Assembly: GCA_964468125.1 (NCBI GenBank)
Contig: CAYXVF010000007.1
Span: 16,531-80,530, forward strand
Direction of reading: 5' to 3'
DNA from: an uncultured Bdellovibrionales bacterium
GTDB lineage: Bacteria > Myxococcota > XYA12-FULL-58-9 > CAYXVF01
Length of the DNA stretch: 64,000 nucleotides
The notes beneath the pieces were generated by a model. The model saw nothing but the letters and a program-made list of their open reading frames with translations. It was not told the DNA's origin and ran no database searches. Position 1 is the first letter of the stretch. Each line of letters opens with the position of its first letter. The position numbers and the translations under genes were made by a program. Positions 1,829-58,418 of the stretch are shown piece after piece.

Positions 1829-4363
1829 ATGGACGACGCTCCTTCCGGGCGCTTGCTCGCGCTCTCCCGCCGATACGTCGACTGGCTCGCGCCCCGGGCC
1901 ACGGCCGTGCTCGTCGCGAGCCTCTTGCTGACCCTCGTCGGCGGAGTTCTCGCCTCGAAGCTGCAGGTGCGCGGCAGCTTTGCGGATCTCCTTCCGCCGG
2001 ATCGCCCCTCGGTCAAAGCGCTCGACGAGGTGCAGACACGCATCGAGGTCTTGGGCTCCCTCTATGTCGCGGTGGAACACGCCGACGAAGACAAACGTCG
2101 CGACGCGATCCGGTTCATCGAACGAGCGCTCGGCGACCTCGACAGTGAGCTCATCGGCTCGGTGGAGTCGGACCCGCTCCCGACCGCCTCATACCTGTGG
2201 AACAACCGCTTCCTGTTCGTCTCCCTCGATGACCTTCAAGAAGCCCTCGCCCGACTCCCGGAGTTCATCGAGGAGCGCCGCAAGAAAGCGAACCCGCTCC
2301 TCCTCGACTTCGAGGACGAAAAAGAATCGGACGCGGAGCAGGAGGCCGAGCGGGACCGCCTCGAGCGAATGAAGGAGCGCCTCGACCGCGCCGAGTACCG
2401 CTACGAGAGCGCCAAGAATGGCTACGTCTCCGAGGACGGCGCGTTCCAGGTCATCGTCATCCGTACGAGCTTTGAGAGCTCGAAGACGAGCAGCGGTCGC
2501 AAGCTCGTGCGCGCGGTGCGCGGCGTGGTCAAAGAGGCTCGCGGCAAATTCCCCGAGGCACGCTTCGGCATTACCGGTGACGTGATCACCACGATGCAGG
2601 AGCAGGAGTCGATCATTCGAGGCATGGCGACCGCCGCGGGGATCACCGTGCTCTTGGTGATGATTTCTCTCGTCCTCTACTACCGCGCGCTCCGGGCGGT
2701 GTGGTGGATCCTCGCAGGTCTCACGGTCGGATCCGTGGTGACCTTCGGCGCCGCCGAGCTCATCATCGGCCACCTCAACGTCGCCTCCGCGTTCCTCGCA
2801 GCGATTGTCGTAGGCAACGGGATCAACCCGAACATCATCCTGATCGCCCGCTTCCGCGAGGAGTACGGTGACGGCGGCTCCGACCGGGAGGCTCTCGTGC
2901 GTGCTATCGCCGGAGCCTTCCGCGGCACCGTCGCCGCATCGCTCACCGCCGGCGTCGCCTACGCTTCGCTCATCGCCACGGAGTTTCGGGGCTTTCGCGA
3001 TTTCGGAATCATCGGCTCCCTCGGCATGGCGCTGTGCTGGGTGGCGGCGTTCACCGTAGTGCCGGCGCTCGTGTTGCGCTTTGGCGGCAAGGGAGAGACG
3101 AACTGGTCCGAGGGCGAGAGTTGGGGCGTGGCCCTCTCAAAGCTGCTCCCGCAGCGGCGCTATGGCCTGGTTCTCGCCACGGGCGCGATCCTGAGTGTCC
3201 TTTCCATTTCGCAGACCTATCGCTTCATCGCCGGTGACCCGCTCGAAGAAGACTGGCGGAAGCTGCGTTCGAGCTCCTCGGACCTGCAAGAGACGCGCTA
3301 CTGGAACGAGCGCATGAAGGCCGAGCTCGTCAACGCCCCGAACAAGTATCTTGCCGGCCGCTTTCTCATCGCCGCGGAGAGCGCGGAGGACGCCTCGGCG
3401 ATTCGCGACGCGCTCAAACCCTACGCTGGCGAAAGCGCGCCGGACGATAAACGGCTCCTCGCCTACATGCGCGGCTACGACGACGCCGTCCCGCGTGACC
3501 AGGAGAAGAAGCTCGAGGTGCTCGCCGAGATCCGAAGCACCATCGACGAGGTCATGGGCAAGGTGCCACGAAAAGACCGGCCAATGATGCGGAAGCTCAG
3601 GCCTTCGGCAGGCCTCGACGCGATCCGCCCGGAGGAAATTCCTCCGGAGCTCACGAAAGCGTTTGTCGAGACCGACGGGCAGATCGGGCGCACGTTGGTC
3701 GCCGCCCTCGATGAACGCTTCGACCACTGGAACGTCGTGCAGCTCGTCGATTTCGTCGAGCGCTTCCGAAAGATCGAGCTTCCGCGCGAAGCGGTGATCG
3801 GGGGACAAGCCTTCGTGTTCGCCGACATGGTCGCTTCGATGACTCGAGATGGTCCGATCGCCTCCGCCCTCGCGATGATCGGCTCGTTCCTGGCGGTGCT
3901 GCTGATCGTCGGCATGCGCTGGCATGGCGTCGTCACCCTCGCCTGCGCGGGCCTCGGCACCCTCGCCATGATCGCCATCGCCTCGGCCCTCGGCGTGAAA
4001 TTGAACTTCCTCGACTTCATCGCGCTTCCGCTGACGATCGGAATCGGAGTCGACTATGCCGCCAACATCGCGGCCCGCGATCAGCAAGACAATCCCTCCA
4101 ACCCACGCCACTTGCTCGCCACTACCGGCGGGGCGGTGTTTTTGTGCTCGCTCACCACGACGATCGGCTACGGTTCGCTGCTGCTGTCGGACAATTCGGG
4201 GATCCGCTCCTTTGGCCTTGCGGCGATCATCGGTGAGATCGCTTGCGGTGTCGTGGCGTTGATCGGTGCCCCGGTGGTCTTCGCCTGGTTGCGCCGTCAC
4301 GGGCGTTTGCCGGCGAGCGCACCCCTGCCTGCGGCCGCCGAGCCTACTCGCGAAAGCGCTTGA
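1829..4363 (+). CDS. MMPL/RND-superfamily membrane transporter (exporter)
   Basis: 844 aa with two blocks of about 6 hydrophobic helices each, separated by large soluble loops. This is the SSD/MMPL architecture. AGGGGG Shine-Dalgarno 9 nt upstream of the ATG at 1829, which lies 1 codon inside the GTG-initiated listed ORF. Confidence 0.7.
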   Translation: MDDAPSGRLLALSRRYVDWLAPRATAVLVASLLLTLVGGVLASKLQVRGSFADLLPPDRPSVKALDEVQTRIEVLGSLYVAVEHADEDKRRDAIRFIERALGDLDSELIGSVESDPLPTASYLWNNRFLFVSLDDLQEALARLPEFIEERRKKANPLLLDFEDEKESDAEQEAERDRLERMKERLDRAEYRYESAKNGYVSEDGAFQVIVIRTSFESSKTSSGRKLVRAVRGVVKEARGKFPEARFGITGDVITTMQEQESIIRGMATAAGITVLLVMISLVLYYRALRAVWWILAGLTVGSVVTFGAAELIIGHLNVASAFLAAIVVGNGINPNIILIARFREEYGDGGSDREALVRAIAGAFRGTVAASLTAGVAYASLIATEFRGFRDFGIIGSLGMALCWVAAFTVVPALVLRFGGKGETNWSEGESWGVALSKLLPQRRYGLVLATGAILSVLSISQTYRFIAGDPLEEDWRKLRSSSSDLQETRYWNERMKAELVNAPNKYLAGRFLIAAESAEDASAIRDALKPYAGESAPDDKRLLAYMRGYDDAVPRDQEKKLEVLAEIRSTIDEVMGKVPRKDRPMMRKLRPSAGLDAIRPEEIPPELTKAFVETDGQIGRTLVAALDERFDHWNVVQLVDFVERFRKIELPREAVIGGQAFVFADMVASMTRDGPIASALAMIGSFLAVLLIVGMRWHGVVTLACAGLGTLAMIAIASALGVKLNFLDFIALPLTIGIGVDYAANIAARDQQDNPSNPRHLLATTGGAVFLCSLTTTIGYGSLLLSDNSGIRSFGLAAIIGEIACGVVALIGAPVVFAWLRRHGRLPASAPLPAAAEPTRESA

Positions 4364-27446: not shown

Positions 27447-29351
27447 TCACTCGTAGCGAATGGCGTCGACGGGGCGGGCGCGGGCGCCTTTGAGCGCTGG
27501 GTAGAGCGTCGCCAGATGTGAAATCACCATCGCCGAAATAGCGACCAGCGCGACCTCGAGCGGCCGGACGCGCACGGTGAGTGAATCGACCATGTAGACG
27601 TTCGCGGCGATCGAAATCCTCATCGCTTCGAGCGCGCTACAGACGAGCAGTCCGAGGGCGATCCCAACGGCCGTGCCCACGCCGCCAACGAACCAGCCTT
27701 CCATCACGAAAATCCGCATGATGCTCGTGTCGCGGGCACCCATCGACTTCAGGACGCCGATCTCCGCCGACTTCTCAACGACAGCCATGAAGAGCGTCGA
27801 TGCAATGTTGAACGCCGCCACGACGATGATGAAGCTCAGTACGAGAAAGAAGACGATCTTTTGAAGCGAGAGCGCGCGAAAGATCCCCTCGTTCAGTTTT
27901 CGCCAGTCGAGGGTACGATAGGGGTAGCGTCCGATCGCGCGCAGCACGCGATTCGCGGTGAGCTCCACCCGATCCGGCTGGGTGACGCGCAGCTCGACGC
28001 CGGTCACCGCCTTCCCCATCCCCATCAGCTTCTGCGTGGCGTCGATCGACGCATAGACCAGGCGTGAGTCGAACTCGTACATGCCCGAGCGAAAGGCGCG
28101 CCCCAGGCGAAAGCGCATCCGCTTGGGGGCATTTCCCCGCGCTCCGGCAAGCCCTACGGGTGTCGAGAGCAGGACGATCGAGCCCTCTTCGAGGTCGAGT
28201 TTTTCGAAGAGCTCCGCCCCGACCACCAGTGTTGGAACGCCATCGCGGTCCTGGACTGCATCGGTGAGCGCGGCGCTCGCCTCGTCGGCGCTCGAGTAGC
28301 GCACGCAGCCTCCCTCGACGATCTCCCGACACAGATTTCCGCCGATCCCGGTAACCTCCGCCGCGCTCGGAACTTCGATCCCTTTCAGGAGAATCGTGAA
28401 GGCTCGGTCGCCGGCGCTCATCATCGCTTCGTTGAAGGTGAAGGGGCTCGCGGCAGTGACATCGTCGAGCTGTACGACCGTATCGCGAATATCGTCGTAC
28501 TCGATGAAATCGTGGCCGTATTTCTGCACCACGAGATGGGCATTGGTGGAGAGGATTTTGTCCTGAACATCCTGCTGATAGCCGCTCATCACCGCGGTCA
28601 CCGCCACCAGCGCCGCAACGCCGAGGGCCACACCGCCGATCGCAACGACCGCGGTCAGTGACACCGCCGCACTCCGATCGCTTCCGAGGAGGTGCCGCAG
28701 GCTCACCATCAGCTCGAACCCCCGGCCGCGGCGCGCCACGTCGCTGCGAAGTGCGTCGGCCTTGTACATGAAGGCGAGCGAGCCCCCCACGATGCTCATC
28801 ACCCAGCTCGCAAAGAGGCAGAGCACGGAAGTCCGGACCCACATCTCACCAAAATAGCGGTAGCCCGGAGGTCGGGCGGCGTACATGTCAAAAAATGACT
28901 CGCCCGCGCCAGGACCGATACCGAACACGCTCTGCCAGCCGACGGCGAGGTGCACGCCGACCAAGACGCCCACCAGCATCATCAGGGCCTGGGTCTCGTA
29001 ATAGGCGATCCGTCGCCCGATCCACCCCATCACCGTGCCCGCAAGCCCGAGCACCAAGACGGCGGCGGTGAAGAGCAGCTCCGGATGAGCGCCGCCCCAC
29101 TGCTCGACGTCGAAGAAAATCGCGATCCGGGCCACAGGGAGCATCACCGCCGCAGTCAGCGCCCCGAGAGCGAAGGCGCCCCAGTGGAATTGGCGGCGCC
29201 AAACCGACAAGATGAGGCCCCAGATCAAAAAGAGCCACAGGAGCTTCACAGCGGTCCAGACCTGGCCTGCGATCCATGCGAGATAGGAGCGGCGCGGCTC
29301 TTCCGCGCGAGGTTTCGGTGGGCTATTCACAGCGTCGCAGGGGGCTAGCAT
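27447..29351 (-). CDS. FtsX/LolE-like ABC transporter permease with extra N-terminal membrane domain; no adjacent ATPase
   Basis: C-terminal 400 aa: 4 TM with a large periplasmic loop 'ILSTNAHLVVQKY...' and the FtsX signature 'EIGVLKSMGARDTSIMRIFVMEGWFVGGVG'. N-terminal about 230 aa form additional helices. Start set at ATG 29351; the listed ORF to 29738 would overlap the divergent gene. Confidence 0.7.
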   Translation of the reverse strand: MLAPCDAVNSPPKPRAEEPRRSYLAWIAGQVWTAVKLLWLFLIWGLILSVWRRQFHWGAFALGALTAAVMLPVARIAIFFDVEQWGGAHPELLFTAAVLVLGLAGTVMGWIGRRIAYYETQALMMLVGVLVGVHLAVGWQSVFGIGPGAGESFFDMYAARPPGYRYFGEMWVRTSVLCLFASWVMSIVGGSLAFMYKADALRSDVARRGRGFELMVSLRHLLGSDRSAAVSLTAVVAIGGVALGVAALVAVTAVMSGYQQDVQDKILSTNAHLVVQKYGHDFIEYDDIRDTVVQLDDVTAASPFTFNEAMMSAGDRAFTILLKGIEVPSAAEVTGIGGNLCREIVEGGCVRYSSADEASAALTDAVQDRDGVPTLVVGAELFEKLDLEEGSIVLLSTPVGLAGARGNAPKRMRFRLGRAFRSGMYEFDSRLVYASIDATQKLMGMGKAVTGVELRVTQPDRVELTANRVLRAIGRYPYRTLDWRKLNEGIFRALSLQKIVFFLVLSFIIVVAAFNIASTLFMAVVEKSAEIGVLKSMGARDTSIMRIFVMEGWFVGGVGTAVGIALGLLVCSALEAMRISIAANVYMVDSLTVRVRPLEVALVAISAMVISHLATLYPALKGARARPVDAIRYE

Positions 29352-29360
29352 AGGAACGGT

Positions 29361-30419
29361 ATGGGAACCAGAGTCTCCAAGTGGATCTCCGCGGGGGTCT
29401 TGAGCTTCGCAGTGCTCAGTCCAGCGAGTTTGCCTCTGGAAGCCACCGAAGCCCAGGCGAGCGACAGCCTCCGCGCCCGCCGCTTCGACAAGGTACAGGG
29501 GGTCACGATCTCCACCCACCGCATCGGCCTCGAATGGGGAACCGATGTGATCGGTCCCACTCTCGATCACATCGCGTCCGTCGGTGCCAACTGGGTCGCG
29601 ATTCACCCCTACGCGGGAATCGGATCGGACGGCACCGTGCGTTTCGATCGCTTCGACCCGGAGGCCTACGCGGAATCTGTGCGCCGACCGATCCGAGAAG
29701 CCCACGCCCGGGGACTGAAGATCCTGGTCAAGCCGCACCTCGCCTACTGGGGCACCGGCTTCAGCTGGCGCGGCGAGATCGACTTCGAAGGTGAGGCGCT
29801 CAAACGCTTCTTCGAGGACTATCGCCGATGGACGGTCTACCTGGCCGAGCTCGCCGCAGACGCGGATGCCTTTTCCGTCGGATGCGAGCTCGACCGTCTC
29901 CTACAACATGAAACTCAGTGGCGCTCGATCATTGCAGAGGCGCGAGGGAAGACCGATGCCCCTCTCACCTACGCGGCCAACTGGCCCACCTACGAGAAGG
30001 TGCCGTTTTGGGACGCCCTCGATGCGATCGGGATCCAGGCGTACTTTCCGCTCTCGGAGAATCCATCGCCAACGCGCACCGAGCTGAAGCAGGCCTGGGA
30101 CGGCTTGATGAAGAAGCTGCGCGTCTACTCCCGGTCGAAAAACAGGACCGTGGTCTTCACCGAGCTCGGCTACAATCATTCGACCGAGACGGCGCGCAAG
30201 CCCTGGGACTACGGCGTCGAGCACAACGCTCGCGCCGCATCGCTGCAGCGGCTCTGCTTTGAGGTCGCGCTCGAAGCGGTCGACGCTGAGCCGAGCGTCG
30301 TCGGCTCATTCCTGTGGAAATGGTTCCCCGAGCCACACCCAAACGGTCGGACCTACGCGCTCGCGACCGACGAGCTCAAAGCGTTGATCTGCGATCGCTG
30401 GTGCAAGACGGAGCCCTGA
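29361..30419 (+). CDS. secreted glycoside hydrolase, clan GH-A-like (GH5/GH26/GH113-type TIM barrel)
   Basis: Signal peptide 'ISAGVLSFAVLSPASLPLEATEA'. Candidate acid/base 'VGCELDR' and nucleophile 'VVFTELGYNHS' motifs are spaced about 100 aa apart. Confidence 0.55.
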   Translation: MGTRVSKWISAGVLSFAVLSPASLPLEATEAQASDSLRARRFDKVQGVTISTHRIGLEWGTDVIGPTLDHIASVGANWVAIHPYAGIGSDGTVRFDRFDPEAYAESVRRPIREAHARGLKILVKPHLAYWGTGFSWRGEIDFEGEALKRFFEDYRRWTVYLAELAADADAFSVGCELDRLLQHETQWRSIIAEARGKTDAPLTYAANWPTYEKVPFWDALDAIGIQAYFPLSENPSPTRTELKQAWDGLMKKLRVYSRSKNRTVVFTELGYNHSTETARKPWDYGVEHNARAASLQRLCFEVALEAVDAEPSVVGSFLWKWFPEPHPNGRTYALATDELKALICDRWCKTEP

Positions 30420-30801
30420 GAGGCTCAGCCGGTCACGAAGCGGTAGCCGATTCCCCTGACCGTGAGAAAGTGGCTCGGCTTCTGCGGGTCATCTTCGAGT
30501 TTTTGGCGCAGACGGCTCACGAAGTTATCGAGTGTACGGTCGGTACCTGCGTAGTCGTACCCCCAGACCTTGGCGACGGGATCTCGAGCTCGAGCCTGTG
30601 GATTTCGCGCAGCACCTCGAAGCCATTCATCTTTGGGAGCATCACGTCGAGGAGTACCAGATCCGGGGTGTTGTCCACCGCCGTGGTCAACCCTTCATCC
30701 CCATCCGGAGCCGCCTGGACCGAATTTCCCTCGAACTTCAGGTTTCTATACAGCCCCTGGGCAATCGATGGCTCGTCTTCGATAACCAGTATTCGCTCCA
30801 T
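30419..30801 (-). pseudogene. OmpR/PhoB-family response regulator remnant (receiver N-half fused out of frame to wHTH C-half)
   Basis: 'MERILVIEDEPSIAQGL...DLVLLDVMLPKMNGFEVLREI' is the receiver N-half with Asp pocket. It then shifts frame into 'VWGYDYAGTDRTLDNFVSRLRQKLEDDPQKPSHFLTVRGIGYRFVTG*'. About 100 aa covering receiver alpha3-alpha5, linker and first half of the wHTH are missing. The junction lies at a GGGGG run near 30575. Confidence 0.6.
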
Positions 30802-31051
30802 CCGATCCCTCAACAGCCAGCGCGCATTCACGCTGCCCCCACGATGAAGCTCGCGCCGATGGAGGACGGAAGTCAGCGGCATGGGATCCAGTTTCATCAG
30901 ACGGGCTCTAGCAGCTCTTTGTCACGGGAGTATCACCGCCCGGTCGGGGTTCCTTTTTTCGACCGTGACCAAATCATGACCTGCCGGTGGACCCCTCGAG
31001 ACTGTCCTAGGGCGATTCTTTGGGCGCCTGACCGGCCCAAGGAGGACAGAC

Positions 31052-31204
31052 ATGGTCATTCGCATCAGCCTCGTCGCGGAAATCGCCCTGACCGCGCTCC
31101 CTGCCCCGGTGAGTGCCGGGGAGACGACTGCGAAGCGACAATTGTGGTTGCGCGCACTGCAGGCCCGCGACGAAGGGAACGCGGCGGCTACATCGTCTCG
31201 ATGA
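31052..31204 (+). CDS. candidate small ORF (50 aa) with strong Shine-Dalgarno
   Basis: AAGGAGG 6 nt upstream of the ATG. 'MVIRISLVAEIALTALPAPVSAGE...' has a signal-peptide-like N-terminus. High GC3. Overlaps the 3' end of the convergent ttpD by 17 nt. Not in the ORF track (<60 aa). Confidence 0.3.
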   Translation: MVIRISLVAEIALTALPAPVSAGETTAKRQLWLRALQARDEGNAAATSSR

Positions 31205-32393
31205 GACGAAGCCACTGCTTTGCAACGTTCGAGTGGGTCGCGTTCTTCGACTTGGCCGCCCGTTCGAGCGCGCGGCGGGCCGGGACCTTGCGACCCGCGT
31301 AGTAGTTGCCGATACCCATGAGCAGGTACGCCTGGCCGCTGTCCGCCAGCTTCCCGGTCTTGATCGCGGCCTCCGCCGAATCGACGGCCTTTTGCCATTT
31401 CTCCTCCTCGAGGAGGAGCTGCGTGAGGCGGAGATAGAGATCGGGAGAGCGCGCGATCTTCGCGGCCTGCTGCAGCGGGGGTACGGCTTTTTCGACTTCT
31501 TTCGCCCGCACATATGCGTCGGCAAGAATCTTCAGGTGCTCTTCGTCGCGGGGGATCGTCTTCTTTCCGAGCTCCTTTTCGAGCACCTGCGCGCCCTTTA
31601 GCGGCACGTCTTGGTAAATAAACATCTGAGCGAGCTGCTTGATGTTGTTCGGCTTGGTGACATAGCCGCCTTCATAAGCGAGCTCGAAGACCGCAAGTGC
31701 ACGCTTTTCGTCGTTGATCTCGCTGTAGAGCCCGCCGAGCTGCAGCCAATAGGTGGCCTTGGGGTAGAGCTCGACCAAACTCTTGAGCGTAGTGATCATG
31801 TCGCGCTTCTTTTTTAGCTCATACTGCACTGCGCCCATCGATTGGAGCCAATTCTCCGGAGGCTTCGGCTTCGCGGCGATGGCGATGGCGAGCTGGTTGA
31901 GCGCTTTGTTCCAATCCTTCTTCTGGATGTAGGCCTGGGCGATGATGAAGCGCGTATCCGGTTTGGGGCTCTCGGCGTCTTTCAGCCAGATCTCGAAGTT
32001 CTTGACCGCATCGTTCCAGCGCTCGAGGGCCATGTAGAGCTGGCCGAGGTTGAAGCGCATGTCGAGGATCACGTTGTCCTCGAGCGCCTCCTGCGCCAGA
32101 GACTTCTCGAAGGCAGCGGCGGCGGGCTTGTACTTGTTCTGAATGAAGTACAGGTGACCGAAGGCCTGGTACATCATCGCGACCTCGCGCTTGTCCAGGC
32201 GACCCTCTCGGTCCTTCATGCGATTGAGCTCGGTGAGCGCGTCGTCGTACTTGTTCTCGTTCATCGCCTCGAACGCGCCGTTGAGGCGCTTGAACGCCCA
32301 CTCACTCACCTGCGCGTGAGCGTCCGTGGGTGCGAGCCACAGAAGGCTCGCGAGCACGATTCCGGGAACTATTCTACGAAGCACTCGATTCAT
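31188..32393 (-). CDS. TPR-repeat periplasmic protein, TtpD-like component of TonB2-type system
   Basis: Signal peptide 'IVLASLLWLAPTDAHA'. Multiple 34-aa TPR-like repeats (W/LG/Y/A/F/AP pattern). Last gene of the exbB-exbD-tonB cluster. Confidence 0.7.
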   Translation of the reverse strand: MNRVLRRIVPGIVLASLLWLAPTDAHAQVSEWAFKRLNGAFEAMNENKYDDALTELNRMKDREGRLDKREVAMMYQAFGHLYFIQNKYKPAAAAFEKSLAQEALEDNVILDMRFNLGQLYMALERWNDAVKNFEIWLKDAESPKPDTRFIIAQAYIQKKDWNKALNQLAIAIAAKPKPPENWLQSMGAVQYELKKKRDMITTLKSLVELYPKATYWLQLGGLYSEINDEKRALAVFELAYEGGYVTKPNNIKQLAQMFIYQDVPLKGAQVLEKELGKKTIPRDEEHLKILADAYVRAKEVEKAVPPLQQAAKIARSPDLYLRLTQLLLEEEKWQKAVDSAEAAIKTGKLADSGQAYLLMGIGNYYAGRKVPARRALERAAKSKNATHSNVAKQWLRLIETM

Positions 32394-32403
32394 CCACCCG
32401 CCC

Positions 32404-33036
32404 CTAGAGATTGAACTCGAGCCGCACCGGCGTCACGCCGTACTCGATCGCTTTTCCATCCACGACCTTCGGATTGTATTTCCATTTGCGTACCGCCTTG
32501 AGGGCGGCCTGCTCGAAGACCCCACGCGGATCTGCGTCGATCACGCTCGGGTTGAGCACCTGGCCCGCGGTTCCCACCCGAAACTTCACCGTGACGTACC
32601 CGGTGATCCCGCGTTCCGCGGCCCGTCTCGGATACATCGGCTGCACCCGAACAATCGGCGTAGCGTCTTGGTCACCGGTCGGACGCGCACCAGGATTGAA
32701 GCCACCCCGTGGTCTGAAGCCGGACCCTCCGGAGAAGCCCGTCGCTTTGAAGTTCGTTTGCGGCGCGTCGATGGTTGCAGAGGCGCTGTTGTTGTCGACA
32801 GTGGAGAGCTTTGGCGGGGGGGGTTCCTTCGGAGGCGGCGTGCGATTGGGCTTCTCGCGCACCTTTTGTTGCGTCACCGAGTCCGTGGGCACGCGGATGA
32901 AGTCGGTTACGAGACCGGCGCGCTTGTCGTCGCTTTGACGACGGGCGCCTTCGATCAGCGCACGCATCCCGAGAAAGAGCGCGAAAGTGATGATGAAGGC
33001 GATCGGCGCCGTGAGCACTACCCTTGGGATCTTCAC
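32404..33036 (-). CDS. tonB: energy transducer TonB
   Basis: N-terminal TM, Pro-rich spacer 'PPPKEPPPPK', and C-terminal TonB domain 'YPRRAAERGITGYVTVKFRVGTAGQV...'. Confidence 0.85.
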   Translation of the reverse strand: MKIPRVVLTAPIAFIITFALFLGMRALIEGARRQSDDKRAGLVTDFIRVPTDSVTQQKVREKPNRTPPPKEPPPPKLSTVDNNSASATIDAPQTNFKATGFSGGSGFRPRGGFNPGARPTGDQDATPIVRVQPMYPRRAAERGITGYVTVKFRVGTAGQVLNPSVIDADPRGVFEQAALKAVRKWKYNPKVVDGKAIEYGVTPVRLEFNL

Positions 33037-33042
33037 GTCAGA

Positions 33043-33444
33043 TCATTCCCGCACCGCGGAGATGGCCACATCCGGCACGCCCGCTTGCTTGGCCGCATCG
33101 ATCACCTTCACCAGGAGCCCGTTGCGGCTGTTTCGGTCCGCCTGAATCACCACTGTTCCTCTTGGATTCTCAGCTCGCAAGCGCTCGATGTTCGCCCGGA
33201 CAGTCGAAATGTCCACACTGCGCTTGTCGATCCACACCTCGTCCGTCTCCGTGATCGCGATCAGGATGCTCGCCGATTCCTTCGACATGGCGGTCTTGGC
33301 CGCGGGGCGCTTCACCTGGACCCCCGCCTCCTTCACGAAGGACGCGGTCACGATGAAGAAGATCAGCATGATGAAAACGACGTCGAGCATCGGTGTGATG
33401 TCGACTTCGGTTTCGTCACCGCCTCCAGTCCGCACTCGCCGCAT
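33043..33444 (-). CDS. exbD: biopolymer transport protein ExbD/TolR
   Basis: 'DITPMLDVVFIMLIFFIVTASF' TM followed by the ExbD periplasmic domain. 133 aa. Confidence 0.85.
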   Translation of the reverse strand: MRRVRTGGGDETEVDITPMLDVVFIMLIFFIVTASFVKEAGVQVKRPAAKTAMSKESASILIAITETDEVWIDKRSVDISTVRANIERLRAENPRGTVVIQADRNSRNGLLVKVIDAAKQAGVPDVAISAVRE

Positions 33445-52230: not shown

Positions 52231-54285
52231 GTGCCAAGTGATCCCCGCTACGACGTCCTCTTCGAGGCGGTGCCGATCGGCCCCGTCACCGCAAAGAACC
52301 GCTTCTACCAAGTACCCCACTGCAACGGCATGGGGCATCGGGCACCCAAAGCCCACGCGGCGATGCGAGGGATGAAGGCGGAAGGCGGATGGGCGGTGGT
52401 GAGCACGGAGGAAGTGGAGATCCATCCCTCCGGCGACATCACGCCGTACATCGAAGGTCGGATATGGGACGATCGCGACATCCCCTATCTGCAATTGATG
52501 ACCGACGCGGTCCACGCGCACGGCTCCCTCGCCGCGATCGAGCTCGTCCACAACGGCCCGTCTTGCGCAAACCTCAACACCCGCATTCCGCCGATCGCCC
52601 CGTCCCACATGCCCGTGTTCTGGCACACGCCGACCCAGGCCCGTGCGATGAGCAAACGCGATATCAGCGACTATCGCCGCTGGCACCGCGAAGCCGCGCT
52701 CCGCGCAAAGCGTGCGGGCTTCGACATCGTCTACGTTTACGCGGGGCACAACCTTTCGCTGCCCATGCATTTTCTGTCGCGGCGCCGTAATCACCGCGCG
52801 GATGAGTATGGCGGATCCCTGGAAAACCGAGCACGCCTCCTCAAAGAGCTCCTCCAGGAAACGAAAGAAGCAGTAGGCGACACGTGCGCCGTCGCAATTC
52901 GCTTCGCGGTCGACGAGCTCGCGGGACCGGACGGTATTCGTGCGGACGCGGAGGGTCGAGACGTCGTGGAAATGCTGGCGGAGCTTCCGGACCTCTGGGA
53001 CGTGAACGTCGCCGATTGGGTGAACGACTCACAAACCGCTCGCTTCGCAGAAGAGGGGTACCAAGAGCCCTACACCGCCTTCGTCAAGCGCGTGACCTCG
53101 AAGCCCGTCGTGGGCGTCGGTCGCTTCACGTCGCCGGACACGATGGTCTCGCAAATCAAGCGCGGGGTGCTCGACTTCATCGGCGCTGCCCGGCCGTCCA
53201 TTGCCGATCCCTTTCTCCCGAAGAAAATCGAAGACGGCGAGCTCCAGCGCATTCGTGAGTGCATTGGCTGCAATATCTGCGTCAGCGGGGACATGACCAT
53301 CTCGCCGATCCGCTGCACGCAAAACCCCGCGATGGGTGAAGAATGGCGGCGAGGTTGGCACCCGGAACACGCGCCCAGGGCTGCTCGGCAGCGGCACATC
53401 TTGGTCGTCGGTGGAGGTCCTGCCGGGCTCGAAGCCGCTCGCGTAGCCGCGCTCCGCGGACACCGCGTGACCGTGGCTGAGGCCAAGAGGGTGCTCGGCG
53501 GACGCCTCGTGGCGGAAGCAAAGCTGCCGGGACTCGCGAGCTGGATCCGAGTGCGAGACTACCGCGAATGGGAGCTCAAACGCTTCGAGCAGGCGGAGAT
53601 CTATCTCGAGAGCGCCCTCGGCGTGGATGACATTCTCGAGCTCGCCCCCGATACGGTCGTGCTCGCCACCGGCGCCCGTTGGCGCAAGGACGGCGTAGGT
53701 CGCGCGCACCACAAGGCGATCCCGGGCTTCGAGCGCGCCTTGACCCCAGACGAGGTCATGGCAGGTCCTCTACCCGAAGGCCGAATCGTGATCTTTGACG
53801 ACGACCACTATGTGATGGGCGGGGTGCTCGCCGAGCTCTTGACCCGCGCCGGAAGAGAGGTCGTTCTCGTGACCCCCGCAGCGTCGGTCTCCGCCTGGAC
53901 CAGCCACACCCTCGAGCACGGACCGATTCAAAAACGCATGCGCGAGCTCGGCGTCCGGATCGAGCGCGAGCGCGACGCGGTCGAATGGCGCATCGACGGG
54001 CTCGTGACCCGGGACGTTTACAGCGACGAGCGCAGCCTCATCGAGGCAAGCGCCTTGGTGTCGGTTACCGCACGGCTTCCAAACGACGAGCTCCTGCAAG
54101 CGATGGAGGTGCGCCGCGACGAGCTGACCGCCGCGGGAATCGAGCATTTCGAGGCGATCGGCGACGCTCATTGTCCGGCGACCGTTGCCGCCGCGGTCTG
54201 GAGCGGCTACCGCTTCTCCTTCGAGCTCGACCAGGACGCAGGAGCAGTCGCGATGAAGCGACAGATTCACGGCGAGGCGTATTGA
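52231..54285 (+). CDS. NADH:flavin oxidoreductase (OYE-like TIM barrel) fused to FAD/NAD(P)-binding domain; 2,4-dienoyl-CoA reductase / TMADH-like
   Basis: 'LFEAVPIGPVTAKNRFYQVPHCNGM' is the OYE N-terminus. The 4Fe-4S Cys cluster is 'CIGCNICVSGDMTISPIRC'. 'ILVVGGGPAGLEAA' is the dinucleotide fold. GTG start. Confidence 0.8.
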   Translation: MPSDPRYDVLFEAVPIGPVTAKNRFYQVPHCNGMGHRAPKAHAAMRGMKAEGGWAVVSTEEVEIHPSGDITPYIEGRIWDDRDIPYLQLMTDAVHAHGSLAAIELVHNGPSCANLNTRIPPIAPSHMPVFWHTPTQARAMSKRDISDYRRWHREAALRAKRAGFDIVYVYAGHNLSLPMHFLSRRRNHRADEYGGSLENRARLLKELLQETKEAVGDTCAVAIRFAVDELAGPDGIRADAEGRDVVEMLAELPDLWDVNVADWVNDSQTARFAEEGYQEPYTAFVKRVTSKPVVGVGRFTSPDTMVSQIKRGVLDFIGAARPSIADPFLPKKIEDGELQRIRECIGCNICVSGDMTISPIRCTQNPAMGEEWRRGWHPEHAPRAARQRHILVVGGGPAGLEAARVAALRGHRVTVAEAKRVLGGRLVAEAKLPGLASWIRVRDYREWELKRFEQAEIYLESALGVDDILELAPDTVVLATGARWRKDGVGRAHHKAIPGFERALTPDEVMAGPLPEGRIVIFDDDHYVMGGVLAELLTRAGREVVLVTPAASVSAWTSHTLEHGPIQKRMRELGVRIERERDAVEWRIDGLVTRDVYSDERSLIEASALVSVTARLPNDELLQAMEVRRDELTAAGIEHFEAIGDAHCPATVAAAVWSGYRFSFELDQDAGAVAMKRQIHGEAY

Positions 54286-54598
54286 GTCGCCACGGCCGGT
54301 CGTTTGTGTCAGTCGTCCTCTTTGAGCGTCGACGACAGCTCGCCGTCGAGGCCCACCACTGAGCGCGCCCCGTTCTCCGCCATGCGTCCGAGAGACTCGA
54401 GCTGTCGAAGCTTGAGCTACGCGCGGGAAAGAGTGCGTATTCGGGTAATGAGTCCTGATTTCTTGGAAAGATTCAACACGCGCACCTTCCGCTTCTGCCG
54501 GGCGGCCGACGGGTCGGAGGGTCGCAGGGAACCACAGTCTCGAAAAGCGGCCCCGACCGAATCGAAAAGAAGTGCTCTCTGCGCTAGGCTCTTCTCCC

Positions 54599-55642
54599 AT
54601 GCGGCGCTCACTCGGCTTTTTCGTGCTCTTCGTGTCCGCCTGTGGAGGTGGCCCGTACCAGCAGAGCTGATGCCTGCGCCCGAGCTCTATCAGGACGGCA
54701 CGATCGACCCCTTCATCGAGTCTGAGGAGTCGCTGAGTGAGATCCCCGGAATTCTTTACGCCACTGATCGACACCCCGCGGGACCGGATGACGATGAGCC
54801 GTTCTATCTGAACGACCGTGGTGGGGTCGTCCGACTCGGCGTCGCCAACATCGGTGTAGACGGCGACCTCGACTGGGAGGACGTTCGAGACGTCTCTATG
54901 ATGAGAGAGCGCAGCAAGAAGCTGAAGCTTCGGGTGACTCGCGTGGACGAGCTCGGAGTGCTCGACCGCACGGTGACCGACTTCACCCGAGACCTCGCCT
55001 CGGACCTCGACCCCAAAGGGCCATCCAGCCTCTTCGCGCGCTTGGTCAACCAGAAGCTCGCGCGCTCGAAGCACAACGACGTCTACATCTACGTGAACGG
55101 CTACAAGGTGCCTTTCGAGAGCGGCGTGCTGATCGCAAGCGAGCTCTGGCATTTCCTCGGCTATCAGGGCGTTTTCATGGCCTACCCCTGGCCCACCTCG
55201 CCGGCCACCTTCGCCCACGCGGGCGATATCGAGACCGCGGCGGGTTACGCCCGTAACCTGCGCGAATTACTGCGTTTCCCTGAGTGAAGAGACCGAGACG
55301 GAACGGATGATCCACATCGTCGCCTATAGCGCCGGGAACCGGGGTATGCCTGAGCGCACACGAGAGTATCTGCGGCGCCTGAAGGAGCGCGCGCACGTCA
55401 TCAACGTCACCGAGGCACGGGATGCGACGTCCGGTAACGGCCACGGCTATTTCTTGGCAAGCCTGTCGGTGAGCAGCGACATTCTGATGACACTGATGTA
55501 CAGACTCGACCCGGAGGGGCGCGGCCTCACCCGTGGTGGAGACGGTGTCTGGTTCTTTCCCGACGACTACGTCGACCGGCTTCGCGTTGCGCTGCGGTCA
55601 GCTGCCGAGAAAGAGGCGCGGAGCACGAACGACAGCGAGTGA
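54599..55642 (+). pseudogene. DUF900-type alpha/beta-hydrolase lipoprotein split into three frames (signal peptide / body / catalytic C-terminus)
   Basis: Frame 2, 54599-54670: 'MRRSLGFFVLFVSACGGGPYQQS*' is a lipoprotein signal. Frame 1, 54670-55287: '...IYVNGYKVPFESG...AYPWPTS...'. Frame 2, 55307-55642: 'MIHIVAYSAGNRG', a GxSxG-like nucleophile elbow. Junctions are TGATG (54668-54672) and a 19-nt gap. Alternative reading: three translationally coupled ORFs. Confidence 0.5.
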
Positions 55643-55649
55643 GCTTGCC

Positions 55650-56369
55650 TCAAACGGTCTGCTGAGCGTGTTCTTGCTGCACGGCGCTCAACATCCAGTG
55701 GCAGGCATGTCGCGCTCGTGCTTTCGCATCGTCTTCGAGTACCTCGCCGTGGGCCATGACCACGCGCTCGAAGGGCCACTCTAGGGCGCGCGCAACGGAG
55801 GCACCGGCGCGTGCTCGGTCTTTGGTCACAGTTCGGATGAGCTTGCTCTGCATCGGCCGGGCCCAGGCTCCGGCCAATCGCAGCATCAGCGGGGTCAGGA
55901 AACCGCGGGCGAGCGAGGGCTGGACGTTGAAGAAGAGGTCCGCGCAGATCAAGGTCTTGCTCGCCGCGTGAAAGAAGACGGTTTCGCCCCAGGCGGGTGC
56001 CCCTTCGATGAAGACCTTCTCAATGCCGGGCCAGCTCACCTCCTCGTCGAGGGTGGCCGCAAAGGACAAGTCCGGACGTTTCTTGCGCAGGCCGCGCGCT
56101 CCGGCCATCACTGCGTTCGGCCAACGCTCCTTCCAGGCGCCGATGTAAAGGTGATGCAGGTTGTTGGGCGCCACCAGATGCGCGACCGGTCCGAGTGCAT
56201 CGACCGCCCCTGCGATTTCCTCCTCGAGTGCCACCGGGGAGTGGACCCAGAGCGCTCCGTCGCCCAATCGAACGATCGTAGCGCGGACCGGCAAGTATGC
56301 ACCGGGCAAGACCTTCACGTGGCCGCCGTCGAGGGTCCAAAGATCGTCTGCGAGTTGCGCGAGTGCCAT
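55650..56369 (-). CDS. DUF4336-like metallo-beta-lactamase-fold protein
   Basis: 'LADDLWTLDGGHV...LVAPNNLHHLY' resembles an MBL-fold His motif. Divergent from the MarR gene. Confidence 0.55.
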   Translation of the reverse strand: MALAQLADDLWTLDGGHVKVLPGAYLPVRATIVRLGDGALWVHSPVALEEEIAGAVDALGPVAHLVAPNNLHHLYIGAWKERWPNAVMAGARGLRKKRPDLSFAATLDEEVSWPGIEKVFIEGAPAWGETVFFHAASKTLICADLFFNVQPSLARGFLTPLMLRLAGAWARPMQSKLIRTVTKDRARAGASVARALEWPFERVVMAHGEVLEDDAKARARHACHWMLSAVQQEHAQQTV

Positions 56370-56380
56370 CGGCTCTCTCC

Positions 56381-56443
56381 CTTGGTCAAGTGTGCTTGAC
56401 TAAATAGAAGCGCTCGGCTAATTAGTCAAGTATGCCTGACCAA
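56381..56443. promoter_or_regulatory. pair of near-identical 22-bp palindromic operator-like sites in the marR/DUF4336 divergent promoter
   Basis: 'TTGGTCAAGtgtgCTTGACTAA' at 56382-56403 and 'TTAGTCAAGtatgCCTGACCAA' at 56422-56443, 40 bp apart. The second overlaps the marR ATG (56432). Confidence 0.55.
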
Positions 56444-56908
56444 AAATTTCGGGCCGAGCTCGAGGCCGCCAAGGCGGCGAGCGTGCCGCAGCTGCTGTTC
56501 AAGGCGGCGCGGCTGCTCAACGACTACGCGATCACGGAAATGCGAGAACAGGCCGGGCTACCGGGCCTGCGTGCGAGCCACACGAGCGTGTTTCCCCACA
56601 TCGCGCTCGAGGGATCGAGGCTCACGGATCTGGCCAGGAGCATGGGGGTGAGCAAGCAGGCGGTGGCCCAGCTCGTCGACGAATTGGTCGAGATGGGGGT
56701 GCTCGTGCGCTTGCCGGATCCGGACGATGGGCGGGCCAAGCGCATCGCCTTCGCGCGTGGGGGCCGGGGGCTCCTCTACGGACTCACGGTGCTCGACCAG
56801 GTGCAGGAGGTGATCGGTGACGCGATCGGCCGGGGGCGGCTCGACGCCCTGCACGATGGATTGAGCGCCCTGCTCGCCTTCCTGGAATCCTCGCCTCGAG
56901 CGGATTGA
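56432..56908 (+). CDS. MarR-family transcriptional regulator
   Basis: Winged HTH 'LTDLARSMGVSKQAVAQLVDELVEMGVLVRLPDPDDGRAKRIAF'. 158 aa. Confidence 0.85.
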   Translation: MPDQKFRAELEAAKAASVPQLLFKAARLLNDYAITEMREQAGLPGLRASHTSVFPHIALEGSRLTDLARSMGVSKQAVAQLVDELVEMGVLVRLPDPDDGRAKRIAFARGGRGLLYGLTVLDQVQEVIGDAIGRGRLDALHDGLSALLAFLESSPRAD

Positions 56909-56939
56909 GCCCTCCCCCTCCCCGCACTAGAGTGCGAGC

Positions 56940-58418
56940 GTGATCACACTCGCCCTCGCGTTTTCCTGCGGACTGTCACTGGCCGCCCCGGAGCTCTACG
57001 ACCGAGACACGGTCGTCGCCGTGCCGTTCTCCACCACCGCTTCGGAACACCTGTGGATCGGCAGCGGTCTTGCCCACGCGTTGAACCTGCGCATCTACGC
57101 GCAGCCGGGACTGAACGCGATGTCCCTGCGTCAGGTCCGCGCGGCGGCCCGCAACGACGGACTCGACCTCGCGAATGCCGCTGACCCGGCGGTCGCCTCG
57201 GCGTTGGGGCGACAGCTCGGAGCGGACACGATGGTGGTCGGCGCCTATGAGGTGAAAGGCCAATCGGTGATCCTCGACCTGATGGTGCTGCAACCGGGCG
57301 GCGGCCAGATCCTTCTTGAAGGTGTCATCCGCGGTACACTCGACGGCTTGGTGAAGCTTGAGGCAGAGGTCGCGAAGAAGGTGGCCCAGGCGTTGGGAGC
57401 CAAACAGCCGGACGTGAGTCTCGGCGCGTTCGGTACGACTTCGGTCGAGGCCTGGAAGGAAGTGACCTCAGGCCTCGGCGGCACGAGCTGGCAATCGCTG
57501 AGCCCGAGGAACGCGAGTGCGAGAAAGCCGCGGGTATTGGACGACGAAACGCTGAAACGGGTGGAGGAGCATTTCCGACGCGCCACCGAGCTCGACGAAG
57601 ACTACGGCGAAGCCTGGGCGGGCCTCGGCCTCGTCGCTGCCCTCCGCGACGACTTCGAGGCCGCGCGCCAGCACCTCACCCAGGCCACCGCGGTGTCCGG
57701 CGCCCATCAACCCACCGCCGTGTTAGCCACCCATTATTCCTTGCTGCGGCAGGGTCGAGCCGAGGACGCGGCGAAAGTGTTGGAGCATGCGCTCGCGATC
57801 CACCCCGGTTTCCTCCACGCCCGTGGCTATCTCGCCGAGCTCTACGTACAGCTCGGTCGCTACGACGATGCGGTCAAAGCCTACGACGACTACCTCGCGG
57901 TCGCGCCCCGTCAGCCCTGGGCGTTGGCTCAACGCGGCTACGTGCGCGCCAAGCTCGGAGACACCACCGAGGCCATCGCCGACACCATCAAGGCGGTCGA
58001 TCTCTTGCCCGGCTCACCCACGCTGCTCATCGAGCTTGCGAGCCGCTACATCGACGCCGGCAAGTTGATCGGCGCGGAAGACACGCTCCGCCATGCGCTG
58101 GAGCTCCACCCGAACGAGGGACGCATCTACGTTCGTCTGTGCTACGTGTACCTGCTCCAAGAAAACGATGAGGTCGCGATTCCTTTGTGCGAGAAGTCGC
58201 TGACGCTCAATGGCTCAGCGGAGCGCCGTCGGGATCGCGGCTACGCCCACCTCAATCTCGCGCAGGCATACGGGCGCAAGGGACAGCTCGACCTCGCCTT
58301 CGACCACCTCGCCAAGGCCGAGGCTGAAGGTATGCGTCGATTCGGCGCCCTCGAGCGAGATCCCGCCCTCGCGAAGATGCGGTCGGACCGTCGGTTCTCG
58401 AAGATCGTCGGGAAGTAG
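56940..58418 (+). CDS. TPR-repeat protein with N-terminal signal/lipobox-like segment
   Basis: GTG start, 'ITLALAFSCGLSLAA'. C-terminal half contains tandem TPRs 'AWAGLGLV...', 'ARGYLAELYVQLGRYDDAVKAYD', 'YAHLNLAQAYGRKGQLDLA'. Confidence 0.65.
   Translation: MITLALAFSCGLSLAAPELYDRDTVVAVPFSTTASEHLWIGSGLAHALNLRIYAQPGLNAMSLRQVRAAARNDGLDLANAADPAVASALGRQLGADTMVVGAYEVKGQSVILDLMVLQPGGGQILLEGVIRGTLDGLVKLEAEVAKKVAQALGAKQPDVSLGAFGTTSVEAWKEVTSGLGGTSWQSLSPRNASARKPRVLDDETLKRVEEHFRRATELDEDYGEAWAGLGLVAALRDDFEAARQHLTQATAVSGAHQPTAVLATHYSLLRQGRAEDAAKVLEHALAIHPGFLHARGYLAELYVQLGRYDDAVKAYDDYLAVAPRQPWALAQRGYVRAKLGDTTEAIADTIKAVDLLPGSPTLLIELASRYIDAGKLIGAEDTLRHALELHPNEGRIYVRLCYVYLLQENDEVAIPLCEKSLTLNGSAERRRDRGYAHLNLAQAYGRKGQLDLAFDHLAKAEAEGMRRFGALERDPALAKMRSDRRFSKIVGK

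Follow-up and report, generated by a model that had tools for sequence, protein, structure and literature searches.

The proteins of Pfam family PF05990 (DUF900) carry the COG label 'esterase/lipase superfamily enzyme'. They are alpha/beta hydrolases whose function is not established, and a member from Rhizobium has been noted to have a lipoprotein-type N-terminus (PMC11878206). A further point of reference is cinquedea, a secreted archaeal alpha/beta hydrolase and bactericidal phospholipase, most of whose archaeal homologues carry a DUF900 domain (bioRxiv 10.64898/2026.06.10.730825).

The locus described here lies in a stretch of 64,000 nucleotides (the window) and belongs to a subfamily of DUF900-type lipoproteins that are typically ~430-465 aa long and share the motifs LMPAP, YATDR, HGYKV, WHFLGY, GYSAGTR, GSDxD, SxxDKAL and GNGHAYFRxSPWVSSD. 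An earlier note on the same DNA had described a lipoprotein of this type encoded in three frames, and had offered sequencing indels, a decaying gene, a leader-peptide-style coupled arrangement and, as a much less likely option, programmed recoding. We conclude that positions 54599-55642 are very probably a non-functional remnant, that is a pseudogene, of a gene for an exported DUF900-type alpha/beta-hydrolase lipoprotein of ~430-440 aa. The features of the locus are as follows.

54286..54598, plus strand: spacer of 313 nt from the stop of the upstream OYE-type oxidoreductase gene to ORF1; presumed former 5' region of the gene.
54599-54670, plus strand: ORF1, a lipoprotein signal-peptide remnant with lipobox MRRSLGFFVLFVSAC and GGGPYQ, then out of frame to a TGA; aligns with the homologues' signal peptide, lipobox and PYxI(x)LMPAP.
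54659..54666, plus strand: lesion 1, loss of one nucleotide (cag-ca-gag), which leaves the two bases CA of the affected codon at 54662-54663.
54664..55287, plus strand: body, in the second frame; N-terminal domain and first half of the DUF900 alpha/beta-hydrolase domain (NGYKV, WHFLGY, WPTS).
55278..55280, plus strand: lesion 2, a C run longer by one base (TTC-C-CTG).
55280..55342, plus strand: nucleophile-elbow segment, in the first frame again, LSEETETER-M-IHIVAYSAGNR; Ser codon at 55328-55330.
55307-55642, plus strand: ORF3, 111 aa, in the frame of ORF1, with N-terminus MIHIVAYSAGN, 19 nt past the body stop.
55340..55345, plus strand: lesion 3, the junction (~55342/55343) of an in-frame deletion of ~87-88 codons right after AYSAGNR.
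55343..55642, plus strand: C-terminal remnant with GMPERT...HVINVTEA, GNGHGYF, VSSDILMTL, FPDDYVDRL and the stop; His codon at 55442-55444; family HMM positions 339-432.

All three frames were recovered where the earlier note had placed them (ORF1 at 54599-54670, the body at 54670-55287 and ORF3 at 55307-55642). ORF1 translates as MRRSLGFFVLFVSACGGGPYQQS*, and its lipobox, VSAC, was found to align with the lipoboxes of homologues, which bears out the lipoprotein signal peptide that had been read there. The TGA of ORF1 (54668-54670) and the ATG (54670-54672) of the 205-aa ORF (54670-55287) have an A in common, and the bases at 54668-54672 agree with the TGATG overlap as reported. The body frame closes at the TGA at 55285-55287, two codons past the loss of the true frame, and the third ORF does take up the original frame after 19 nt and start at the elbow, with MIHIVAYSAGN at 55307. 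Third-position GC tracks the same three frames as ORF1, the body and ORF3, and because it follows exactly these frames all three pieces were once coding sequence.

A TTG-started ORF of 327 aa (54304-55287) was considered as the gene and rejected, its first 120 codons being without homologue support and merely stop-free in GC-rich sequence. Within the spacer (54286..54598) no match to a sigma-70-like promoter was found, and a terminator-like hairpin at 54441-54458 was not above chance.

Against the Pfam DUF900 profile (PF05990, cut-off 20.5 bits) the 205-aa ORF scored 35 bits (E = 1.4e-8, profile positions 8-85 of 232), in keeping with the assignment of the body to DUF900, and the 111-aa ORF alone had zero Pfam matches. 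Joining the frames across lesion 2 lengthens the match to profile position 108, and the repaired window product, with 50.7 bits over positions 8-108 of 232, is like the body above the cut-off; an intact homologue matched positions 6-223 with 130 bits. NCBIfam models matched neither the repaired product nor a homologue that is intact.

A search of ~5.8 billion proteins returned an identical 205-aa product on one 95.6-kb NCBI contig, with the other relatives <= 49% identical. In a collection of species-representative genomes, of which the window's own genome is not a member, there were 208 relatives, the best with 53% identity, and the taxa of the relatives included Gammaproteobacteria, Desulfobacterota, Myxococcota, Alphaproteobacteria and Kiritimatiellales. 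A scan of JGI metagenomes yielded no close relatives and no intact near-identical allele. Among the 67 loci that were examined and are not cut by a contig end, 65 hold the gene as one uninterrupted frame of 439-588 codons, and the possibility raised in the earlier note that orthologues might show the same three ORFs was not borne out by any of them. Forty-four loci were modelled as lipoproteins of 429-496 aa, with a signal peptide, a lipobox and, ~10 residues on, the invariant LMPAP. There is no conserved gene neighbourhood among the homologues, any one neighbour family occurring in <= 5 of ~72 loci, and the neighbour genes in the window were not found beside homologues.

Disrupted members, each broken in a way of its own, were seen elsewhere in the family. 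The locus L083 (Desulforhopalus sp. MAG, 2808-3837) has an 80-aa signal-peptide/N-terminal ORF that is stopped by a frameshift after YATDRQP, together with an internal deletion; L048, from the Olavius algarvensis Delta 4 symbiont, has a single in-frame stop at about 6229, and in L052, from Photobacterium sagamiensis, a stop at about 7137 replaces the invariant Trp of SPW. As a separate observation, two proteins that are mutually 49% identical (P0002 and P0012) have a common internal junction, LVGSD|IL(I/A)TL, and are without the stretch from GSD to SSD, including the GNGH histidine; this junction could be a recurrent short-repeat deletion or the mark of an old short subfamily.

The lesions were placed by a MAFFT alignment of the window product with 46 intact homologues, in which the product is collinear with the homologues through both frame junctions. 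The two compensating shifts that the earlier note had located on either side of the body are evident in the alignment as 1 nt missing at ~54659-54666 and 1 extra C at 55278-55280. Lesion 1 falls between PYQ and ELMP, and restoring one base gives C-GGG-PYQ-x-ELMPAP, with the same spacing as C-ASG-PYQ-I-NLMPAP in the homologue L006. Around lesion 2 the body frame is right through TTC (LLRF) and the frame of ORF1 is right from CTG (LSEETETER), and LLRF and LSEETETER together match the family motif LLE(F/Y)L(A/S)EET. At lesion 3 the alignment has a gap of 85-91 residues (median 87) against all 46 homologues.

A family HMM run against the six-frame translation of the whole window gave the same picture. 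Positions 24-230 match the body frame (265 bits), and positions 229-250 and 339-432 match the frame of ORF1 (105 bits for that piece), the profile jumping from 250 to 339 at lesion 3 with one residue between; the 88 positions 251-338 have no counterpart in any of the six frames of the window. The repaired product is 42-53% identical to homologues and collinear with them along its entire retained length.

A smaller change is found at the start of ORF3. None of the 46 homologues (0/46) has a residue at the position of M237, the ATG of ORF3 (55307-55309), which makes this a codon inserted in the window only; by its sequence the insertion looks like a tandem duplication of GAT, from CGGATC to CGGATGATC (CGG-ATG-ATC). 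This codon, the ~88-residue deletion and the excess of conserved-residue replacements described below had been overlooked in the earlier note.

Given that the source appears to be a metagenome-assembled genome (a 95.6-kb NCBI contig, with singleton protein clusters), and that the second indel lies inside a short C run (55278-55280), we considered whether the gene is intact and the frameshifts are errors of sequencing or assembly in that genome. Against this, the Logan assembly of run SRR7048222, made with a different assembler, has the same indels: its contig L001 (3402 nt) corresponds to window positions 53900-57301 with 2 SNPs and 0 gaps, both SNPs (54476 and 54497) lying upstream of ORF1 within the 313-nt spacer, and a second Logan contig (4748 nt) corresponds to window positions 28628-33375 with one substitution and no gaps. 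The NCBI and Logan assemblies may share one read set, and are thus independent in assembler and maybe not in sequencing; a literature search on the run accession found no paper. Further, the first indel is outside any homopolymer, a 620-nt stretch of a single gene holds both indels, and the long ORFs of the window include no other same-strand split pair. Long intact ORFs of up to 1323 aa fill the remainder of the window, and the immediate neighbours have full-length Pfam matches. Because the two indels strike one gene within 620 nt and none was seen elsewhere, they argue for a pseudogene over random error. Finally, neither the 88-position deletion nor the replacement of invariant residues would be undone by fixing both indels. 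The sequencing indels suggested in the earlier note are therefore an unlikely explanation, given that the Logan assembly repeats every indel, that the other long ORFs are intact and that the deletion remains, and we regard an intact gene behind faulty sequence as very improbable.

Since the two shifts compensate one another, we asked whether programmed recoding, by shifting -1 near 54660 and +1 near 55280, might produce one full-length lipoprotein. In the frame of ORF1 (54599-54670), however, an X_XXY_YYZ heptamer is absent. The body frame does contain a heptamer, U_UUC_CCU at 55275-55281, but this gives a -1 shift (TTT CCC TGA, with an immediate stop) whereas +1 is required, and although the second shift window closes at a UGA, like stop-stimulated +1 sites, the sequence CGU UUC CCU GAG UGA is without a +1 re-pairing option. 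The RNA downstream folds no better than shuffled sequence at either place (z = +0.57 for 54655-54760, z = +1.38 for site 2), 0 homologues are shifted at these positions, the frameshift of L083 being elsewhere and L048 and L052 having in-frame stops, and the product of recoding would still be without the hydrolase core. Having neither a productive slippery site nor downstream structure to rest on, the recoding that the earlier note had already ranked lowest is in our judgement barely conceivable.

The geometry at 54668-54672 invites a different explanation, in which three small proteins are made by translational coupling: ORF1 would serve as leader peptide, ribosomes that terminate at UGAUG would reinitiate there to make the 205-aa body, and ORF3 would use the ATG at its own start. 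An overlap of TGA and ATG is the classic arrangement for coupling, but here it is the ancestral Leu-Met pair of the invariant LMPAP, and (C/T)TGATG occurs in 44/61 intact homologues. Because Leu-Met is spelled CTGATG or TTGATG, any upstream loss of 1 nt terminates beside the Met of LMPAP. The leader-peptide-style coupling of the earlier note thus loses its footing, the TGATG being in-frame Leu-Met codons in those 44 homologues. The ATG codon of ORF3 is specific to this genome, as separate initiation would suggest, but inspection of the sequence showed no clear Shine-Dalgarno before 55307. Codon-position GC is kept in each piece, but the body would be without export signal and nucleophile, ORF3 would be an elbow without core strands, and the layout is found in none of the homologues, with 65 of the 67 complete loci in a single frame. 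We consider coupling of this kind highly unlikely.

The catalytic residues are probably retained only in part. The nucleophile elbow is present, AYSAG (55322-55336) aligning with GYSAG, and two intact homologues (L005 and L008) likewise have AYSAG; the C-terminal histidine motif is present as GNGHGYF, against GNGHaYF in the family, with the His codon noted above. A complete hydrolase core that includes the segment with GSDxD and SxxDKAL was not found, HMM positions 251-338 being missing from the window, and neither was a signal peptide joined to a mature protein, since a stop follows 8 codons past the lipobox and the body is in another frame.

To place the deletion in the fold we used an AlphaFold model of the homologue P0015 (pLDDT 76.6, pTM 0.82), in which strands and helices alternate as in an alpha/beta hydrolase. 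Comparison of this model with the PDB by fold returned cutinases, lipases and thioesterases, matches that are generic and weak (E about 1e-4, TM 0.3-0.5), and a search of the PDB by sequence profile gave a single non-significant lipase match (E = 0.86). By a hand residue count the deleted stretch corresponds to approximately residues 133-220 of P0015, which comprise the helix after the nucleophile, three further helices and the strands 159-165 and 188-193. The invariant GSDxD and SxxDKAL motifs fall inside this stretch, and because the canonical order of the fold is nucleophile, acid, histidine, the catalytic acid likely belongs to GSDxD or SxxDKAL of the deleted segment.

Conserved positions outside the deletion have changed as well. 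Of the 88 columns that the window retains and in which intact homologues are >= 90% conserved, 14 are replaced in the window, compared with 0-9 (median 2) in each of the 46 homologues. The replacements include HGYKV to NGYKV, FENP to FESG, AY to AH and YFRxSPW to YFLASLS, and with the last of these the invariant R, P and W are lost. The excess is a sign of relaxed constraint, and some of the replacements could reflect divergence of the lineage instead of decay.

Intact homologues, two frameshifts, the 88-position deletion and the 14/88 replacements together leave the 'decaying gene' of the earlier note as the sole survivor among its options. Intact homologues exist, the disabling lesions were seen in a second assembly, and constraint on the remaining residues appears relaxed. 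In the history that we propose, an ancestral single frame was struck by at least four mutations. A 1-nt deletion just past the signal peptide uncoupled the export signal from the remainder, and 620 nt downstream a C run gained one nucleotide, which by chance restored the first frame. An in-frame loss of ~88 codons right after the nucleophile elbow removed two core beta-strands along with GSDxD and SxxDKAL, and a 3-nt insertion by chance created the ATG used by the ORF finder for 'ORF3'. Drift at many conserved residues has added to these lesions, and the remnant presumably yields no functional product.

The lesions account for the three 'ORFs', the TGATG overlap and the 19-nt gap, none of which represents a mechanism of expression. 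All three pieces have kept the codon-position GC of a gene, so the decay is not old, and there is no close orthologue by which to date the lesions, the best homologue being 53% identical. Some residual translation of the fragments would still be compatible with the sequence. It is also conceivable, if very improbable, that the remnant still has a product: the 205-aa fragment, now lacking an export signal, would be made through termination-reinitiation at the UGAUG and kept in a new role in the cytoplasm, and the ATG found only in the window would have been selected for expression of the C-terminal piece.

For annotation, the pseudogene reading means that the three ORFs should be recorded as one pseudogene, and neither as three hypothetical proteins nor as a candidate for recoding. 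It also illustrates how a TGATG coupling that looks designed can arise from frameshifts that compensate each other and from a CTG-ATG codon pair of the ancestral gene.

The setting of the remnant was examined in related genomes. Three MAGs labelled Myxococcota bacterium encode an IlvD with 89, 88 and 82% identity to the one encoded at a distance of 3.7 kb from the remnant, and contigs of these three MAGs are syntenic with the window (CSD, ComM, OYE-type oxidoreductase, DUF4336, MarR, TPR and IlvD). In the three syntenic MAGs no DUF900 gene or remnant was found (tblastn best E = 5.5). At L085 (16504-19214) there is a 4-nt overlap between the OYE and DUF4336 genes, which in the window are 1364 nt apart; at L089 (12271-16520) genes for a GST and a WYL regulator occupy the OYE/DUF4336 spot, and at L087 (16813-19266) the OYE gene is missing. 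Because these three loci and the window each differ there, the spot is variable. The gene was probably an accessory one, acquired by the window's Myxococcota lineage and now disappearing from it; alternatively, the relatives may have lost it. A search on both sides of the 1.36-kb segment for repeats that might betray a mobile element gave short chance matches only, the GC content of the segment is slightly lower (0.62 vs 0.64-0.69), and no remnants of GST or WYL genes, as at the L089 spot, occur in the window. Repeated inactivation of this DUF900 lipoprotein family in unrelated genomes and the variable spot here fit a dispensable accessory role.

Several other regions of the window drew our attention. 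A second decayed gene lies at 30425-30801 on the minus strand, where the remnant of an OmpR-type response regulator consists of a receiver piece (MERILV..., 30801 to 30517; Pfam Response_reg positions 1-71 of 111) and, in another frame, a winged-helix tail (30589 to 30425; Trans_reg_C 32-77 of 77), with ~100 residues missing and the sequence repeated in a Logan contig. Between 61006 and 63192, a region of ~2.2 kb, long ORFs with the third-position GC pattern typical of this genome are absent, the frames give a mixed signal and the ORFs have zero Pfam matches; further decayed genes or a foreign insert could account for this. The DUF4336 protein encoded at 55650-56369 on the minus strand (239 aa) matches just Pfam positions 2-86 of 321, and the DUF4336 products of the syntenic relatives are of similar length (228-244 aa), so that a short subfamily is probably represented rather than a truncation. 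Rfam and tRNA scans of the whole window returned nothing.

Compared with Pfam family PF05990, the window product likewise has an A/G-Y-S-A-G elbow, a GNGH motif and a lipoprotein-type N-terminus, but it covers only positions 8-108 of the 232 of the profile, its frame is broken twice and the segment with GSDxD and SxxDKAL is deleted. Compared with the subfamily of ~430-465-aa lipoproteins, it is the sole three-frame copy among those examined, and has the most replacements at conserved sites (14/88). Cinquedea is secreted and is encoded by a stand-alone gene without informative neighbours, and the bacterial family considered here is likewise without conserved neighbours; the likeness is only a lead to a possible function of the intact members, and the window copy is dead whichever function that may be. 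With ordinary frameshift and deletion pseudogenes the locus shares several independent lesions, relaxed constraint, intact homologues elsewhere and the lack of a copy in syntenic relatives. Nothing essential differs, the compensating frameshifts simply giving it a misleading designed look: it is an ordinary pseudogene, and a dead member of a known family.
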